A DNA stretch of 64,000 bases from Candidatus Hecatella orcuttiae (lineage in GTDB: Archaea; Thermoproteota; Bathyarchaeia; Hecatellales; Hecatellaceae): the NCBI GenBank assembly GCA_002011035.2, contig MTLY02000002.1, forward strand, positions 320,001 through 384,000, read 5' to 3'. Positions 28,313-38,493 of the stretch are shown here, in pieces; position 1 is the stretch's first letter, and each line of letters opens with the position of its first letter. Below the pieces are notes generated by a model that was not told where the DNA came from, did no database searches, and saw only the letters and a program-made list of their open reading frames with translations. Made by a program: the position numbers and the translations under genes.

Positions 28313-29044
28313 TTGATGCTATGGGTTTTTTTGGGACTGTGTCAGAGGGAATTTTACATGGGCGCGAAAACCTCTAAACGGCGGGGGAGAGAGCCTCCCC
28401 ATTCCTCAGGACTCTCCTTCCTTGAGGTAAAGGAAGAAAAGCAGAGGCTTAGGCGTAGAATCTGGAGGCTGCTGGAACAACGCCAAGCGGCATTATTTCC
28501 TTTCCCCGTTTGGGGGAGGATGCCCAACTTCGTAGGCTCGGATGTCGCTGCTGAAAGGCTCCGCCAGCTAAAAGAGTGGGCTGCTGCTTCGGTTGTTTTC
28601 TGCAACCCCGACTACGCTCAAAAACCCGTCAGGGAAAGAGTCCTCAAGGACGGGAAAGCTCTGCTCATGGCTACGCCTAGGCTTAAGGCCGGCTTCCTTT
28701 TCATCCCTCCAAGGGACGCAAGAGGCAGGGAAAGCTACCTAGCCACCATCAAGGGGGCCTTCCGCCACGGCACCGCCCTTCCACTGGAGCGGGCTCCGAA
28801 ACCCGACTTGCTGGTCACTGGCTGCGTGGCGGTGGACTTGGAAGGCTTCAGGCTTGGAAAGGGCGGCGGCTACGGGGACAGAGAAATCAGAGAGATTCAG
28901 GAAAGGTTCGGCAGGATTCTCGTGGTCACCACCGTCCACGACTTACAAGTGGTGGACAAGGTTCCAGTGGAAAAGGGGGATGTGAAAGTCGACATCATCG
29001 TAACCCCAACTCAAACCTACCGGGTTGACGGGAAGGAAAGCTAA
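28313..29044 (+). CDS. 5-formyltetrahydrofolate cyclo-ligase family protein
   Basis: PNFVG, NPD..Q, TPRL, RLGKGGGYGD, VHDLQ, DIIVTP. Confidence 0.88.
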   Translation: MMLWVFLGLCQREFYMGAKTSKRRGREPPHSSGLSFLEVKEEKQRLRRRIWRLLEQRQAALFPFPVWGRMPNFVGSDVAAERLRQLKEWAAASVVFCNPDYAQKPVRERVLKDGKALLMATPRLKAGFLFIPPRDARGRESYLATIKGAFRHGTALPLERAPKPDLLVTGCVAVDLEGFRLGKGGGYGDREIREIQERFGRILVVTTVHDLQVVDKVPVEKGDVKVDIIVTPTQTYRVDGKES

Positions 29045-30126
29045 GCTAAGCCGGCCTTTTCTTCTCCAAGCTTCTTCCTCACCGCCTCCACTAAACCTAA
29101 GGTTCCCGCCATCATGACATCGCCCCCAGGGTAGGCGAAGTGCACCTTTAAACCGGAGTCTTTCAGCATCCCCCGCCGGGGCCCTGTGGCTGCGACCAGT
29201 TCTAGGTTCTTAAACCCTCGAGGCGAGGAGATATAAAAGGCTCCGTGACCGCCGTCAGCTAGGACTTCTTCGGATGTTAACCTCCCCTCCGCCAAGTTCA
29301 CTGCGAAGGTTTCCAGTTTAGAAGGCGTCAGCAGGGAAGTGTGATGCTCCATCAGCCCCAGCACAGTGCCTTTATCCACCACCGCCATGATGGTGTGCGA
29401 GTTTCCCAAGTTCATGGCCAGCACACAGTCAGCGAATTTGACGGCTTCATCTTGAAGACAGCCTAAAACAGCCGCGGGCACGCTGTCCATGACCCATACA
29501 CCGATGTTTGGCAGCTGCCGTTTAGCCGCCTTGACTCCCGACTTCATCCTATAGTAGCAGTCGGGAATTCTGTCTTCAGAAAACATAAGGCTGGCAAGTG
29601 AAGGATCCTTCAAGAGAGGCTCCCTCATTTTTTTCAGCCTAAACTTGTTTCCAGCTTCCCCTCTTGGGGGAACCCCGTGGTCCTGCACAGCCAAGGCCAC
29701 AGCGTCTAGGTTCTCTAGTTTTTCTCCGAAACTCTGCAAGAACAACGCTAAGGCTTTTATGTTCACTTCTTGAGTTTCAAGACGGGGACCGTTCCAAGTC
29801 TCGGGGGCTTTGCTTAAAACTTCCACCCCCAAACGCCTAACCCTGTCTAGGTCGTTGTAAAAGGTGTAGGCTGCAGCCTCCGTGGCGTAGAAACGATATC
29901 CCTGCTTCAAGAAGTCTTTCACCACACCTGTTAAGGCGCCACCGCCTACTGTGTCTCCTGTGATGAGAAAGCGCCGCCCTTTCTCCGCCAAGGCTTTTAG
30001 TTTTTCAGCCAAAATCCCCGTTGGGCTTGGAAGCACCAGTTTGATGCAGTTCTCCAAGTTTTTGTTAGAGTCGTAGAGTAAAATGTCCTCCGTCCCCGAA
30101 CCGATGTCTAAAGCCAGAATTTTCAA
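29041..30126 (-). CDS. DUF1786-like ASKHA-fold protein
   Basis: LALDIGSGTEDIL, PSPT, AVQDHG, NLGNSHT, EHHT, DGGHG, PGGDVMM. Confidence 0.75.
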   Translation of the reverse strand: MKILALDIGSGTEDILLYDSNKNLENCIKLVLPSPTGILAEKLKALAEKGRRFLITGDTVGGGALTGVVKDFLKQGYRFYATEAAAYTFYNDLDRVRRLGVEVLSKAPETWNGPRLETQEVNIKALALFLQSFGEKLENLDAVALAVQDHGVPPRGEAGNKFRLKKMREPLLKDPSLASLMFSEDRIPDCYYRMKSGVKAAKRQLPNIGVWVMDSVPAAVLGCLQDEAVKFADCVLAMNLGNSHTIMAVVDKGTVLGLMEHHTSLLTPSKLETFAVNLAEGRLTSEEVLADGGHGAFYISSPRGFKNLELVAATGPRRGMLKDSGLKVHFAYPGGDVMMAGTLGLVEAVRKKLGEEKAGLA

Positions 30127-30208: not shown

Positions 30209-31414
30209 CTATTTAATGAATCCTTTGAGGTGTAGGTCTTCTCGGAAAATTCTTTCCAAAGTGCTGAAGGGCACTTTTAAACGGATTTTTTTAGTCCGCC
30301 CATAACGTCCTAGGCTGGCAATTTTGGCATTAACCGCCCCCAGCATGTCCAACTCGTTCAGGAGGCCGCTTATCCTCCGCTGAGTCAGGGCTTCAACTCC
30401 AATCCTCTGAGAGAGTTCCTCATAAGCCTCATAAAGTTCTCCAGAAAAGAGGCCTTCTCTCGCCGTCTGCTTTTTTTCGTAGAGCACAAAAAGAATTAGC
30501 TTAGAATGAAGGGGGAGAGAGTTTAAAACCTCCAAAACCCGGTCATGTTCTATCTTCCTCTGCGCATCTCGCACATGCTCCTCCGTCACTACACTGGCGC
30601 CGTCCCTCTCAGCCACTTCCCCAGCAACCCTTACCAAGTCGAGAGCCCGCCTTGCATCCCCATGCTCAGCGGCAGCAAGGGCTGCACAGAGGTTCAGTGT
30701 AGCGGAGGGAAGACTTCCGTTGCGGAAGGCCAACTTTACCCTCTGTTGCAGAATATCCCGAATCTGCTCAGCGCTATAAGGTTTGAAGACCATTTCCTCT
30801 TCGCTGAGGCTGCTGAGGACTCTGGCGTCTAACATGTCCTTGAAATAGAGGTCGTTAGATATGCCTATGGTGGTGAGGCTGCTGGATTTCAGCTCTTCGT
30901 TGATGCGGGTTAACTTGTAGAGCAACCGGTCTCCATGTTCTTTGACTAAAGTGTCAACTTCGTCCAAAGCAACGATAAAGGCGCAACGAGCATCGTTTAA
31001 TCCTTCTTTAAACCTGTCCAAGGCTTCTGCCACTGAAAGCCCAGTGAAGGGAATGCTAACTCCTACAGCTGAGCACATGTTTGAAACTACTCTATACTCG
31101 GTTCCTGCTGCTCGGCAGTTTGTGTAACAAATTCTCACTTTTTCCCCCCTTTTTTCGCTTTTTTTAACCAATCTCTCCAGAACATACCTTGTCACCGCCG
31201 TCTTTCCTGTCCCAGTTTTACCGTAAGCAAAAAGATTGGAGCATTTCATTTTTTTAAGGGAAGGAGCAAGGATGGAGGCAAATCTTAATATTTCTTTTTC
31301 TCGGTGAGGGAGTTCTTTCGGTACAAAATCATGTCTCAAGACTTCCCTGTTTACAAATATTGAAGATTCACCTGCATATTTTTCGAAAAGCTGCTCTAGT
31401 TTATCTACAGACAA
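30209..31414 (-). CDS. cdc6: Orc1/Cdc6 replication initiator
   Basis: LPHRE, GKTGTGKT, LDEVD, GDARRALD, C-terminal wHTH with GRYGRT; TTG start at 31414 preferred (the ORF extends to 31513). Confidence 0.96.
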   Translation of the reverse strand: MSVDKLEQLFEKYAGESSIFVNREVLRHDFVPKELPHREKEILRFASILAPSLKKMKCSNLFAYGKTGTGKTAVTRYVLERLVKKSEKRGEKVRICYTNCRAAGTEYRVVSNMCSAVGVSIPFTGLSVAEALDRFKEGLNDARCAFIVALDEVDTLVKEHGDRLLYKLTRINEELKSSSLTTIGISNDLYFKDMLDARVLSSLSEEEMVFKPYSAEQIRDILQQRVKLAFRNGSLPSATLNLCAALAAAEHGDARRALDLVRVAGEVAERDGASVVTEEHVRDAQRKIEHDRVLEVLNSLPLHSKLILFVLYEKKQTAREGLFSGELYEAYEELSQRIGVEALTQRRISGLLNELDMLGAVNAKIASLGRYGRTKKIRLKVPFSTLERIFREDLHLKGFIK

Positions 31415-31530
31415 TGCCTCGCCTCTAGAACTTTCTCTAAAACAGCGAGAGACAAAATAAATGGTTGACTTAAGAAAAGAAGACATGAAACACAAAAAGA
31501 ATAGATTAGACATAAAAGATTAACCAGTAC

Positions 31531-31797
31531 ACCCGCCGGTTTCCACTGGAAAATAAGTTAGGTGCCCAGAAAAAATATATTACAAATGCCAAAAGATACC
31601 TCATACGGTTTATCTTTGTTTCAGATATAAAATTACTCAACCAAACTTTTAATGTTAACCTCAATTTCTCTGTAACAACATCACTTCTTAGAAATTTAAC
31701 TTTTCCAGTGGAAACATAGGGGTGGAGCAGGCGATATAAGTTCAAATTAAAACCGTTCACAAAATATAATATTTCAACCCCCTTATTTCCACTGGAA
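31531..31797. other. Replication origin (oriC) with three ORB elements and an AT-rich unwinding region
   Basis: ORB1 (-) 31531-31551 TTCCAGTGGAAACCGGCGGGT; ORB2 (+) 31703-31723 TTCCAGTGGAAACATAGGGGT; ORB3 (-) 31777-31797 TTCCAGTGGAAATAAGGGGGT; directly upstream of cdc6. Confidence 0.9.
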
Positions 31798-31966
31798 AAG
31801 GAAGATACGGCCTCTTAAAGGATATTTTCCTTAGAAAAGGTTGTGAAAAGGTGAAAAGAAATTTTTCTTTAGAAACTCCAATTTCTAAATTTTTCCCATA
31901 CGATCCCTGTTTGACTTCACAATTAAATTTATTACATTGTGAAGAGAAGTAAGTGAAGGACAGACG

Positions 31967-32377
31967 TTGGAATTGAGAAAGGTAAAAGTGGAGGTCGAAG
32001 ACATCAAAGGAAACAAGTACACCTTCACGGTTAGTTCTCCCATAAACCGAGATAAAATAATCAAGTTCATCGACCTAGTAGAAATGATGGCCGGTTCTTT
32101 GGAAATTAAAAATCCCTCCTCCTCAGACACGAAATTTGAAAAAATCCTCCAAACCGTGAAAGAACACTATCCTTTTCAATGGTTTACATCCACTGAAGTT
32201 CAGTTAGCTTATGAAGAAAAATTTAAGGAGCCCATAAGCCTCAGCACCGTTTCCACCTACCTAAGCAGGTACTGGGAACAAAAAATTCTAACCCGCGAAG
32301 GCTCTCCAGCCAGTCTTCGGTATAGACTTAACCCTGAGGTTTTAAATTCAGCACCGAAACAAGAACGTAGTGGCTAG
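31967..32377 (+). CDS. Winged-helix DNA-binding protein adjacent to oriC
   Basis: FTSTEVQLAYEE...ISLSTVSTYLSR....ILTREG...YRL wHTH pattern. Confidence 0.75.
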   Translation: MELRKVKVEVEDIKGNKYTFTVSSPINRDKIIKFIDLVEMMAGSLEIKNPSSSDTKFEKILQTVKEHYPFQWFTSTEVQLAYEEKFKEPISLSTVSTYLSRYWEQKILTREGSPASLRYRLNPEVLNSAPKQERSG

Positions 32378-32380
32378 AAT

Positions 32381-33100
32381 TCAGAGAGGCTCTTCTTTAA
32401 CAGAAAACTCAAAACTTTTCCTGATCCTTTCACTTAAACTATAGCTGAAAGGTATTACATCAGTGTTTCTAACCACATAACCTTCTCTGTAAAGTTTTTT
32501 CATTAACCTCGCTGCGTGCTCCCGTGTTTTGCCGATGACCTCTCTAATTTCCGGAGCTGTTTTAGGGCCGCTGCGGTACAAAACTTTTAGGACAGCCATC
32601 TCTGTGGGGGTTAAGCGAGCGATGGAGACGTTTCCCCCCTCTAGCGTTGGACTCGGCTCCTCCAAACGTGGAGTCAAGCCTCGCATTTTTTTATCTTGGG
32701 CATTAACCTGCTGTTCAAGCTGGATACGCTTTTCATCTAGGGCAGATAGTTTATCGTTATGGACTTTCAATATTTTTGCGAATTTTGTCTGAGCGCGGAA
32801 GAGCTCTTTGATATTGGCGGTTAATGCTGATAACGTTTCCCTCTCAGCTTCATGGAAAGATTGAAGGCGGTTTAACTCTGAAAAGGAAGCTTCAATTCTG
32901 TGCAGAGCATAGGAGACACTCTCCTCAACTTTAGCCATCTTCTTACTTAACTGAACTATGGAAAGCTGAACCAAGTCGCTTAACTCCCCTAGAGAACTCT
33001 TTTTAGGCCTTCTGAATAGAAGCAGTGCGAGAAGAAATCCGAAGGCCGCTGTAAAACTCAACAAGCCTAGAAAAAACACTTCTCCGGAAAAAACCGTCAT
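32381..33100 (-). CDS. Membrane-anchored coiled-coil protein with C-terminal wHTH
   Basis: N-terminal TM (aa ~8-29) followed by RRPKK, ~100-aa heptad region, LTPTEMAVLKVL...TAPEIREVIGKTREHAARLMKKL..EGYV.R. Confidence 0.8.
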   Translation of the reverse strand: MTVFSGEVFFLGLLSFTAAFGFLLALLLFRRPKKSSLGELSDLVQLSIVQLSKKMAKVEESVSYALHRIEASFSELNRLQSFHEAERETLSALTANIKELFRAQTKFAKILKVHNDKLSALDEKRIQLEQQVNAQDKKMRGLTPRLEEPSPTLEGGNVSIARLTPTEMAVLKVLYRSGPKTAPEIREVIGKTREHAARLMKKLYREGYVVRNTDVIPFSYSLSERIRKSFEFSVKEEPL

Positions 33101-33118
33101 GAAATCTCACTCACCCTC

Positions 33119-33499
33119 TCACATGTGACCTGAAGAAAATCACAGAAATAATCACCTGTGACCTCTTCAACTGCATAATTCCCACCTGATATCACAAGTG
33201 ATGCTTTTGTAAGCAAGCACATCACATTTGACCTGACATTCATTCAAAAAATTATTCTCTTTATCAGGATTTAAACCTTGTGATTCCACCTACAAATCAT
33301 GTGACATCACGTTTATATGATAATTTTTCATTAAAAAGGAGTTATTCGGTGAAAAGAAGCTTATTTTTAGGGCTAAAATTGTTTTTAAACAATAATATAA
33401 GTTTTTATGTTAAGACATCACATGTCAAGTCACAGCTGATGTTTATTTATGATTTCAGGCGGTCACGGCATCACATGTAATCTGTGACATCACGTTTGA
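33119..33499. repeat. Array of TCAC-N2-GTGA palindromes and half sites
   Basis: TCACATGTGA 33119, TCACCTGTGA 33152, TCACAAGTGA 33192, TCACATTTGA 33222, TCACATGTCA 33418, TCACAGCTGA 33430, TCACATGTAA 33471, TCACGTTTGA 33490; 15-mer TGTGACATCACGTTT at 33300 and 33483. Confidence 0.85.
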
Positions 33500-33993
33500 T
33501 ATTTCAATGACTTGGGAGAAGTCAAAGTATTTAGGGCTTTTTCCAAGGCCTCCCTTACAGAAACAATGGTTGCGGCTCTTTGAAGTTCGTCGGAACTTGA
33601 TGAGGACTCTTCGCGGACTTGTCTATGTAAATCTAAATAGTCCTTCAGTCTACTGGACAATTCGATGTATTGTTGGAAGGCAGGCAAGTCGAAGATCCCC
33701 AGGGAGCCCAGTAATAAAAACGTGTATATTGACTTTATTATGTTTTTCTGAGCTTGTTTCAGGGTTCTATTGAAAGAACCTTTACTAATTTTTCCTTTAA
33801 TTCTAAAATAAGTTTTTTCTTCAGTTATCATTTTATTTCCAGATAAATATGGAATTATAGTGTCTATTAGAAACGTTTCCAGCTGCGTTTTGGTTAAATG
33901 ACTGTTTTTAAGTAGAATATCAGTGATGGGGTCTTGGTCGAGGTTTCTTAGCCATTTTTTGAATTCTTCAGGGTCCTTTAATTCCACGCTCAA
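33490..33993 (-). CDS. Putative HTH DNA-binding protein (Tfx/HTH_10-like)
   Basis: SHLTKTQLETF...KISKGSFNRTLKQAQKNI. Confidence 0.65.
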   Translation of the reverse strand: MSVELKDPEEFKKWLRNLDQDPITDILLKNSHLTKTQLETFLIDTIIPYLSGNKMITEEKTYFRIKGKISKGSFNRTLKQAQKNIIKSIYTFLLLGSLGIFDLPAFQQYIELSSRLKDYLDLHRQVREESSSSSDELQRAATIVSVREALEKALNTLTSPKSLKYQT

Positions 33994-34132
33994 GGAAACA
34001 CCCTGAAAGAATACGTTTTTGTATACCAGTATTTAAATCTTCCCGCAATCATAAGGTCTAAGGTTCCAATTTTTGGAGGCTTACCATACCTTTAGAAGCT
34101 AGGTGAGCAGGGAAACCCAGGCTTTCCGGAGG

Positions 34133-36777: not shown

Positions 36778-37413
36778 TTGAAACCGCTTAAAAACTGGGA
36801 AAAGAAGGATTCTCTCTTCGGAAAAATTAGCGACCGCTTCCACCGCACTCCGCCTTTGAGGGATAAGGTTTTCAACTCCCTCTACAAACTTAACAGCATC
36901 CAAGCTAAACTGGAGCAGTTGACCAACAAACTGGAGCAGAAGGATCGGGAGCTCTTTGGCAAATGCGCTGAATCCATGGCCCGGGGAGATGAGGAGCGTT
37001 CGAAGATCTATGCCAACGAGTGCGCTCAGCTGAGGAAGATGGCTAAAACCGTTTTGGGAAGCCAGCTGGCCATCGAGCAGGCTGCTTTAAGGCTGGAGAC
37101 GGTGAAGGAATTCGGAGACGTGGCCAAGGAGATGATGCCTGTAGCTGGTGTAGTTCGGTCGTTGAAAGGGAAGCTGGTGGGAGTTATGCCTGAAGCCTCC
37201 TTGGAGCTCAACGAAATTGGAGAAACATTAAACGAGATCATGTTCGAGGCGGGGGAAGTCTCCGCGTCGGCTCCCAGCTTCCAAGCCTCAGGGGAAGAGG
37301 CTCAGAAAATCCTTCAGTCCGCTTCGGTTTTGGCTGAGCAGAAAATGAAAGAGAAATTCCCCAAACTTCCAGTGGGAGAATTTGCGGAGGAGCGTTCTCC
37401 CGACCTCGGCTAG
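36778..37413 (+). CDS. ESCRT-III / CdvB-family protein (Snf7 core)
   Basis: LFGKC....GD..RSKIYANE..QLRK, LRLETV.EFGD, GVMPE, EEAQKIL..A...AE, FPKLP (MIM2-like). Confidence 0.9.
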   Translation: MKPLKNWEKKDSLFGKISDRFHRTPPLRDKVFNSLYKLNSIQAKLEQLTNKLEQKDRELFGKCAESMARGDEERSKIYANECAQLRKMAKTVLGSQLAIEQAALRLETVKEFGDVAKEMMPVAGVVRSLKGKLVGVMPEASLELNEIGETLNEIMFEAGEVSASAPSFQASGEEAQKILQSASVLAEQKMKEKFPKLPVGEFAEERSPDLG

Positions 37414-37515: not shown

Positions 37516-38493
37516 ATGGGAAGAGAGGAAAGACTTGAAGATGAAGTCCTAAGGATCTTTTTCGTCCTCTTGTCTGTGGTGAGTTGGTTTTTTATTCTCC
37601 AGTGGGCAGCGGAGCTTCTAGGCTGGCCCAGCCGGCCGGCGGGGTGGTCCTACCTCGCCGCCTTCTACGGGGCCTCTGCCGCCTATCTGGTGGGAAGGAC
37701 GAAAGGGCGGCTTAGAAAGGTCGTCTACGACTCCCCTTTTGCCGCTTATATCAACCTCCTGATAATCCTCGTCCCCCTATTCCTCATCTACCTAGCCTTG
37801 GCAAATCCCCCGCTGGAGGAGGCTCCTGGAAAAATCAGCCGACTGACGGCTTCAAGCCCCCTCACCTTGGCTTCAGGTTGGCTTTTCTCCTTCACCGCCT
37901 ACAGGTTTCTGGACAAGCTCTACGACAGGATTTTTGGGGTTTTCGAAAAAACCGGCCCCAGAGTCAGCTTCAAGACATCCGGCCCCATTCAAAGAGATGC
38001 GGAGGAGGTAGCGGGGAGGCTTGAGGTTGAGGCTGGAAAGCTGGCAGCCAAAGCCTCTGCTTGGGAGAAGCATGCCCACAGGTTGTACGATAAAGCCTTA
38101 GCAGCTCAGGTTTCAGGAAAAGCCGATAAAGCCAGCGCCTACCTTACAGCCTACTGGGAGGCGAAGAAGAACTCAGACCTGCTGGTGAAGGTGCAGGTGC
38201 AACTGGAAGGCTTAGTGGAGAGGCTTAAAACCCTCCACAGCTTCGCGGAAACCATGGCCGAGATGCCCTCCGCCTTCAAAACCATTTCAGAGCTTAAAGG
38301 GAGACTGAAGGGAGTTATTCCCGCTTTCTCCGGCGAACTGGAGAAGATAGGGCGAACGGTAGAAGAGCTTCTGGCCAAGACGCAGGCTCACGGCGGCAGC
38401 CTCCCAGAACAGCTCCAGGGAAAAGAGGCTCAAAAAATCCTCCTAGAAGCCGGCGGCGTAGCAGAGGCGAGGCTGAGGCATGGGAAAGACTAA
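37516..38493 (+). CDS. Transmembrane domain fused to a CdvB/ESCRT-III-like domain
   Basis: 3-4 hydrophobic segments in aa 12-130; C-terminal ~170 aa aligns collinearly with the neighbouring CdvB (LKGRLKGVIP vs LKGKLVGVMP; GKEAQKIL vs GEEAQKIL). Confidence 0.8.
   Translation: MGREERLEDEVLRIFFVLLSVVSWFFILQWAAELLGWPSRPAGWSYLAAFYGASAAYLVGRTKGRLRKVVYDSPFAAYINLLIILVPLFLIYLALANPPLEEAPGKISRLTASSPLTLASGWLFSFTAYRFLDKLYDRIFGVFEKTGPRVSFKTSGPIQRDAEEVAGRLEVEAGKLAAKASAWEKHAHRLYDKALAAQVSGKADKASAYLTAYWEAKKNSDLLVKVQVQLEGLVERLKTLHSFAETMAEMPSAFKTISELKGRLKGVIPAFSGELEKIGRTVEELLAKTQAHGGSLPEQLQGKEAQKILLEAGGVAEARLRHGKD

Follow-up and report, generated by a model that had tools for sequence, protein, structure and literature searches.

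The 64-kb window examined here (positions 320,001 to 384,000 of contig MTLY02000002.1 of the archaeon Candidatus Hecatella orcuttiae; coordinates below count from its first nucleotide) contains a dense array of GTGA half-sites at 33107-33499. The array fills the entire intergenic region (33101-33489) between two co-oriented minus-strand genes, called gene A and gene B below, ∼1.3 kb from a replication origin of the origin recognition box (ORB) type. We concluded, with a probability of roughly 0.6, that this 390-bp spacer is a dedicated multi-site docking and operator array of the gene B product, which would repress its own promoter from these sites. An autoregulated promoter is the minimal form of this reading and could explain most of the anatomy.

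Eight TCAC-N2-GTGA sites with at most one mismatch and 16 RTCAC/GTGAY half-sites were counted in the array. All eight palindromes listed in the initial annotation were recovered, three as exact copies of TCACNNGTGA (33119, 33152, and 33192) and five with one mismatch each (33222, 33418, 33430, 33471, and 33490). Exact TCACNNGTGA occurs three times in the window vs. 0.55 expected, a number reached in 0 of 100 shuffles, and nine times in the 1.75-Mb genome, three of them in the array. The window total of sites with up to one mismatch is not above chance (14 vs. 15.7 expected), and 8 of these 14 lie inside 381 bp. Genome-wide, 292 such sites were found (0.17 per kb); the array has 8 per 400 bp and no other place has more than 2. 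Half-sites (RTCAC/GTGAY) reach 16 per 400 bp in the array and 8 at the runner-up locus, against a genome mean of 1.9. The 15-mer TGTGACATCACGTTT, described earlier as a duplication, is indeed present in two exact copies at 33300 and 33483 (0 expected). The remaining genomic copies of TCACNNGTGA and GTGANNTCAC are each located within an open frame of at least 128 codons; from this and from the site counts, the array is unique in the genome and has no visible regulon.

The initial annotation had proposed a dedicated locus, a view to be given up if the motif were common genome-wide or if the region were just an autoregulated promoter with no array in relatives. The proposal stands, since the motif is not common genome-wide, the cluster has no equal in the genome, and relatives carry arrays as well. 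The same annotation called 33320-33410 A/T-rich and motif-free: the composition (70-82% A+T) and the lack of RTCAC/GTGAY were borne out, and the stretch does contain one bare GTGA 4-mer (33349).

The features of the spacer and its surroundings are compiled in Table 1. Read in the direction of the genes, the palindrome at the gene A stop is followed by the distal cluster down to 33418, the A+T stretch (33417-33311), a GTGAYRTCAC (33310-33301), the block TCACAAG-GTTTAAA (33284-33270), four TCAC-N2-GTGA sites (33231-33119), a Shine-Dalgarno-like GGTGA, and the gene B ATG. The TGA stop codon of gene A (33490-33492) forms part of a GTGA half-site within GTGAtgTCAC at 33484-33493. This GTGA-YR-TCAC element (33301-33310 and 33484-33493) has the opposite arrangement to the TCAC-N2-GTGA palindromes and is the most conserved arrangement among relatives; the unit that is conserved is the half-site (T)GTGA(Y). 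The candidate TTTAAA box is positioned ∼170 nt upstream of the gene B ATG, and by sequence reading a second candidate, ATTATTT, lies ∼47 nt upstream. Because TTTAAA (33270-33275) sits 36 bp proximal of the A+T-rich core at 33311-33417, this candidate promoter does not explain that core. Gene A has its own TATA-like box, TTTAAAT, at ∼34031-34037. A sigma-70-type promoter and terminator scan gave chance-level output, a scan type that is not applicable to archaea.

Table 1. Coordinates of the array, its parts, and the adjoining features in the 64-kb window.
Feature	Position	Strand	Remarks
ORB-type replication origin	31537..31802	.	Three TTCCAGTGGAAA-type boxes, including the inverse, around an A+T-rich spacer; assigned from sequence only
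Gene B, 239 amino acids (aa)	32381..33100	-	Presumed array binder; Pfam MarR match, structure model, fold matches
Proximal half-site cluster	33107..33231	-	Palindromes and single half-sites; in relatives, clusters of this kind adjoin the B start codon
Proximal palindromes	33119-33128; 33152-33161; 33192-33201; 33222-33231		TCACATGTGA; TCACCTGTGA; TCACAAGTGA; TCACATTTGA, in that order
Single proximal half-sites	33140; 33107/33111		The latter two overlap GGTGAGTGA, Shine-Dalgarno-like, just 5' of the gene B ATG
Candidate core promoter of gene B	33270..33284	-	TTTAAA 33270-33275 and adjacent half-site GTGAT 33280-33284
Mid palindrome in first exact 15-mer copy	33300..33314	.	GTGACATCAC 33301-33310
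A+T-rich spacer	33311..33417	.	70-82% A+T, no RTCAC/GTGAY; one bare GTGA at 33349
Distal cluster	33418..33499	-	TCACATGTCA 33418; TCACAGCTGA 33430; GTCAC 33462-33466; TCACATGTAA 33471; TCACGTTTGA 33490
Distal copy of the mid palindrome	33484-33493		GTGACATCAC, in the second 15-mer copy
Gene A, 167 aa, all-helical	33490..33993	-	Constant upstream partner of the array and gene B

The order orc1, ORB origin, p136, B, array, A is found repeatedly in Bathyarchaeia and in Nitrosopumilus-type genomes. A species collection yielded 399 loci related to gene A, 80 of which were retained for synteny counts. Gene B follows A on the same strand in 80/80 of these, p136 was present in 76/80, and orc1 fell inside the fetched flank in 60/80. 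Among 41 related genomes, orthologues of B and A were detected in 24 and 29, respectively. Half-site density peaked at 27-39 per kb within 300 bp after the A stop, vs. a background of ∼1.5 per kb. It was 38.3 per kb in 90 A-B spacers and 1.5 per kb in 60 ORB spacers from the same set of loci. In a set of 101 gene A loci (the window and 100 others, not de-duplicated; L055/L078 and L057/L096 are examples of duplicates), B is downstream in 97; GTGAYRTCAC lies no more than 40 nt from the A stop in 91 of them, the stop is TGA in 86, and the median is 11 half-sites per 300 bp.

From the 90 spacers, 36 of 285-335 bp were aligned (median pairwise identity 56%). The half-sites and one TTAAA box make up the blocks that are 80-95% or more conserved, and for this reason we regard the half-sites together with the TATA-like box as a phylogenetic footprint. 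The consensus blocks run, in order, TGTGACgTCACAAATCACA at the A stop, an A+T block, TGTGAtgTGTGATaTCAT, ACC..AAaccTTAAAaagTccATGG, and CTGTGATgTGTGATGcAAc...ATCACgcataAATCACAG just 5' of the B start. The TATA-like box of the consensus is placed between a two-heptad cluster and a four-half-site cluster that reaches the start codon, the same order as in the window, and a TCACAAG-TTTAAA or CTTAAAA block between clusters is conserved in relatives. In the 90 spacers, adjacent half-sites in direct orientation are most commonly 7 bp apart (217 pairs), then 11 bp (86); for adjacent GTGA...TCAC the commonest spacing is 6 bp (111 pairs), then 18 bp (41). TCAC-N2-GTGA, the main arrangement in the Hecatella orcuttiae genome, is a minor one in the class (11 pairs). 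Four other chromosomes each carry two GTGAYRTCAC copies at the A locus; elsewhere they have 1, 4, 0, and 1, matching a reversed-pattern control.

Of 301 genomes from the phylum, 160 yielded B-like genes in a profile search. Among 12 B-like loci from other classes, 11 have an adjacent p136 and 7 an adjacent orc1, and the 450 bp upstream of the B-like gene contain 10, 9, 11, 8, 7, 6, 0, 4, 6, 14, 6, and 6 half-sites. The A-like gene of Nitrosopumilus-type loci also terminates within GTGAT repeats. At one such locus (L150, 4164-4404) the GTGAT half-sites enter the 3' coding part of the A-like gene and are read as Val-Ile (GTG ATx), so the same bases may double as coding sequence and sites.

Two further observations were made on half-sites near gene A. 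Many Bathyarchaeia (L070-L149) have a second half-site array 300-500 bp upstream of the A start; counted from the A stop, the density peaks between -1000 and -800, at 16-31 per kb. The window has no second array upstream of gene A. In genome G019 (L050, 10193-13517), a 3.3-kb stretch of 32% G+C between hypF and gene A contains several degenerate copies of a unit consisting of the end of gene A plus GTGAtgTCAC. Its longest frame is no more than 81 aa, and Rfam gave no match on it.

The presence of the array appears to follow gene B. In four genomes, 96-100% complete (loci L063, L064, L065, and L068), orc1 and A are kept and B was not found, an absence re-checked by profile in three of the four; p136 was detected in L063, L065, and L068 and not in L064. 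The A stop of these B-less loci has no palindrome, and 0, 0, 0, and 1 half-sites. Genome-wide, they hold just 0, 1, 3, and 1 scattered singletons, similar to the control pattern. Conversely, arrays are kept at B-like genes that are not preceded by A (L018 and L158-L161). At L158-L161, from three other families, a CBS-domain helix-turn-helix (HTH) gene takes the place of A in front of the B-like gene, and the GTGA arrays are kept; the longest open frame of these B-like homologues lacks a hydrophobic segment at its N-terminus.

The structure model of the gene B product (predicted local distance difference test 83) predicts a hydrophobic helix (6-29) followed by RRPKK, a single helix of 106 residues (37-142), a low-confidence linker (144-157), and a winged helix (165-234). 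Residues 163-213 match Pfam MarR PF01047 (28.7 bits, cutoff 24.6). By Foldseek, the head matches the winged helices of MarR-like regulators, of AspA (the centromere-binding protein of pNOB8), and of MecI, with E values from 2e-4 to 1e-3; a gene B profile against PDB sequences gave mostly coiled-coil look-alikes. The model lacks the compact dimer layout of MarR proteins, formed by N- and C-terminal helices, and shows just a winged helix after a long helix and linker. A hydrophobic N-terminus followed by K/R was present in 26/28 gene B orthologues. The recognition helix, (K/R)(T/S)REH..R(L/T)(M/L)KK, is invariant or nearly so in the 28 and is also retained in Nitrosopumilus-type homologues, which keep GTGAT arrays near orc1. 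Where the recognition helix differs (AREHVARTLKKL), the half-site remains GTGA; since the half-site is constant and the helix varies, covariation gives no handle on the binder.

Gene A gave few leads. Neither its own protein nor 44 relatives matched a Pfam family, a PDB sequence search returned nothing better than E 0.08, and Foldseek returned nothing at E ≤0.001. VIA-align found generic helical hairpins (Z ≤8.3 over residues 103-167). In the Atlas, gene A belongs to its own family; the one other lead, a weak one (0.79), points to a Hadarchaeota cluster with Sigma70_r4 in 14% of its members. The most conserved segment of the protein is an invariant, polar and basic helix, S-R-G-x-F-N-R-T-L-x-Q, and the Nitrosopumilus-type A-like protein retains it (hhalign probability 94%).

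In the docking and operator reading, B would be anchored in the membrane by its N-terminal helix with the remainder in the cytoplasm, an orientation suggested by the K/R run after the helix, and two copies would probably pair through the 106-residue helix. The winged-helix heads, on flexible linkers, would each bind one (T)GTGA(Y) half-site on double-stranded DNA. Flexible heads on a coiled-coil stalk might tolerate what the spacers display, an invariant half-site in variable spacing and orientation (6, 7, 11, and 18 bp). Once occupied, the clusters on and around the TATA-like box and the start region would turn B transcription off when B is sufficient; the distal cluster at the gene A stop codon may loop to the proximal one. 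The element probably acts at the DNA level. An RNA role is unlikely because the main palindromes would fold with loops of just 2 nt, the alignment gives a weak fold without covariation, and the folding z is only -1.86.

Several points weigh against this reading. At L050-L054, where other genes intervene between A and B, it is the A stop that keeps the palindrome, and B can be without upstream sites. The B loci L156 and L157 have 0 and 4 upstream half-sites. The evidence from the B-less genomes is weaker than it looks because gene B and the spacer could be lost together; the genomes compared, being related, do not count as independent, and the 101 loci include duplicates. A leader of ∼170 nt is unusually long for an archaeon, and with the best TATA-like box that far from the ATG, the true gene B promoter is uncertain. 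Half-site spacing of 6-7 bp is tighter than that of classical MarR dimers and suits ribbon-helix-helix proteins better. Finally, a protein whose own promoter is its sole recognizable target would be an odd pure regulator, which suggests that the array does something more.

Such an additional role could be attachment of the origin to the membrane. Many B copies on the array would hold this DNA, 1.3 kb from the ORB origin, at the membrane and so serve origin positioning, segregation, or the control of initiation. We consider this possible and clearly less probable than the operator reading, with which it is compatible and which it would extend: repression of B from the same sites would then be a by-product that sets the B level. 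The predicted build of B, a membrane helix with no outside domain, a ∼106-residue helix, and a DNA-binding head, is that of a tether rather than a sensor. The sites form a single high-density cluster with no apparent regulon, here and in four other chromosomes, and a median of 11 half-sites per 300 bp is far above what a simple operator needs. The linkage to orc1 and the ORB spacer hardly varies over the two classes, Nitrosopumilus-type genomes included. AspA, a centromere binder, is among the best fold matches of the B head, although all winged helices look alike. A bacterial functional precedent is RicO/ricS of Staphylococcus aureus, which is reported to anchor origins (bioRxiv 10.64898/2026.03.06.710092). 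Against attachment, the locus has no partition nucleoside triphosphatase (NTPase) gene, and the sites occupy one locus rather than being dispersed around the origin as ricS or parS are. The L158-L161 homologues seemingly lack the anchor and keep arrays. Several Bathyarchaeia do without B, so a tethering role would be dispensable, and membrane insertion and localization of B are predictions. In a broader version, held just as tentatively, the array would be a motor-less chromosomal centromere-like site of Bathyarchaeia and ammonia-oxidizing Nitrosopumilus-type archaea, with gene A as a conserved cofactor.

It is less likely still that another protein binds the array and B is merely regulated from it. 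The binder could be the gene A product, the CBS-HTH protein whose gene neighbors B in some lineages, or a small ribbon-helix-helix protein. Gene A is the constant upstream neighbor, its stop codon lies inside the most conserved palindrome, and many Bathyarchaeia have the second array upstream of A. Its segment S-R-G-x-F-N-R-T-L-x-Q, polar and basic and retained in the Nitrosopumilus-type A-like protein, resembles a recognition helix. Yet genomes with A and without B have no array at A or elsewhere, B-like genes keep arrays with no adjacent A, and A has no detectable DNA-binding family or fold. In favor of a ribbon-helix-helix protein, such a protein binds the omega heptads WATCACW (PMC9499535), to which the array class is similar in its ATCAC core and 7-bp direct spacing. 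No gene of this kind was seen at the locus, however, and in relatives the GTGA half-sites introduce stops into the frames of the spacer. The window's locus has no CBS-HTH gene.

The initial annotation likened the layout to a parS-like centromere or a second origin element. We regard a second replication origin or an origin accessory element, with binding clusters flanking an A+T-rich unwinding core, as very improbable. The core (33311-33417) does lie between two site clusters 1.3 kb from the ORB origin, and a second orc1 paralogue might use another motif. Against it stand the four B-less genomes (L063, L064, L065, and L068), where the array is lost with B and orc1, the ORB spacer, and A stay, and the layout, in which a conserved TATA-like box separates the mid and proximal clusters and the array terminates at the start codon. 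The annotation was right that the motif is unrelated to ORB: the half-sites are unlike the ORB boxes at 31537-31802, and the ORB spacers of relatives have background half-site density. Cumulative GC skew was computed over three contigs and was not informative in either direction for the window's contig. The paralogue in question is a divergent orc1/cdc6 (29% identity) on contig C2 (181699-182886), 170 kb from the first orc1.

Equally improbable is an RNA-level element, either a structured B mRNA leader or a small RNA, or a small protein gene in the spacer. Its attractions, inverted repeats with a modest fold (z = -1.86 for 33101-33275, minus strand), a 66-aa frame on the plus strand (33280-33480), and a ∼49-codon frame, read by eye, that ends in ATGA on the B start, are outweighed by an Rfam search of the whole window that returned two tRNAs only, palindrome arms that are both sequence-invariant with no compensatory change (RNAalifold energy for 19 proximal regions, -8.7 kcal/mol; covariation term, -0.29), 2-nt loops in the commonest palindromes (GTGA-N2-TCAC and TCAC-N2-GTGA), half-sites in both orientations and variable number, GTGA-borne stops in the spacer frames of relatives, and the lack of any family for the 66-aa frame.

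The ORB origin is flanked by orc1/cdc6 (30209-31513, minus strand) and p136 (31967-32377, plus strand). The latter is a 136-aa winged-helix gene, syntenic with orc1 in Bathyarchaeia and Nitrosopumilus-type loci, and its product may be an origin-associated factor. By Pfam, the neighbors of the array are gene A (no family), an HD hydrolase, p136, and orc1; across 16 frames between 27123 and 39188, no ParA or ParB family was detected. The gene directly downstream of orc1 (29041-30126) was considered as a ParM-like motor and rejected; it is DUF1786 (E 6e-67) and is not syntenic in the relatives examined. Two paralogous coiled-coil genes (36778-37413 and 37516-38493), 3.3 kb from the array, match Snf7/ESCRT-III weakly (E 3e-4, short of the cutoff). 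Members of the family preserve the gene order HD hydrolase, PAC4-like, endonuclease III, Snf7-like.

How chromosomes are positioned and separated in archaea that divide with ESCRT-type machinery is largely unexplained and, to our knowledge, no archaeal chromosomal centromere or membrane anchor has been described outside Sulfolobus SegAB. A search for origin-adjacent elements of Bathyarchaeia and Nitrosopumilus found no description in the limited literature covered. The present finding is a sequence-defined cis element with a candidate protein partner beside the replication origin in two abundant archaeal classes. Even the minimal reading would tie a flexible half-site grammar, an invariant 5-bp unit in variable spacing, to an unusual regulator predicted to be membrane-tethered. 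If attachment proved true, the newly replicated origin region would be pinned to the envelope by a multivalent, membrane-anchored coiled-coil winged-helix protein. Homologues of B are recorded in cultured Nitrosopumilus species, annotated merely as winged-helix or MarR, so direct testing is possible.

Compared with known systems, the array shares with archaeal origins its repeated sites flanking an A+T-rich core near orc1/cdc6. It differs in having another motif and no ORB boxes, the true ORB origin being the neighboring spacer (31537-31802), and it is not retained with orc1 and the origin: where B is absent the array is gone and the origin is kept. With MarR-family autoregulators it has in common a predicted MarR-type winged helix and palindromic sites that appear to overlap the protein's own promoter region. 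In the model, a membrane helix and a 106-residue helix replace the dimerization helices, and the 16 half-sites over 390 bp, the absence of further genomic targets, and the conserved origin linkage contrast with the usual one or two palindromes. ParABS systems have a ParB/Spo0J-type protein and a ParA ATPase encoded at or near parS; here neither family was detected between 27123 and 39188, B has a predicted MarR-type winged helix, and the array occupies a single locus instead of palindrome copies dispersed around the origin.

RacA/ram of Bacillus subtilis is an origin-to-membrane anchor. RicO/ricS, another such anchor and compared here by description, is similar in that B is predicted to combine a DNA-binding domain, a coiled coil, and a membrane element in one protein. 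The preprint describes RicO as a DNA-binding domain with a coiled coil and a membrane-binding, C-terminal amphipathic helix, and its motif as confined to the origin-proximal region, with nine 18-bp sites over ∼700 kb (bioRxiv 10.64898/2026.03.06.710092). The Hecatella system differs in its one dense array, the predicted N-terminal transmembrane helix, and the overlap of the sites with the protein's own candidate promoter.

The centromere-operators of plasmids, omega/ParB of pSM19035, parC/ParR of R1, tubC/TubR, and AspA of pNOB8, are the remaining comparison. The array is chromosomal and archaeal and adjoins oriC, and no ParA, ParM, or TubZ-type motor NTPase gene is found at its locus. Relative to omega, the presumed binder is predicted to be a membrane-anchored MarR-type winged helix and not a ribbon-helix-helix protein, and the sites in the window are 30-40 bp apart rather than contiguous heptads. 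The likeness to the group is in the iterated direct and inverted units that lie upstream of the presumed binder gene and over its candidate promoter, and for AspA also in its winged helix, which is among the top fold matches of the B head. The omega heptads 5'-WATCACW-3' are given as 7-10 consecutive copies in both orientations, overlapping promoters and bound by a ribbon-helix-helix protein (PMC9499535). Formally, the array class bears a striking resemblance to these heptads, with the same ATCAC core and with 7 bp as the commonest direct period in the A-B spacers (217 pairs).

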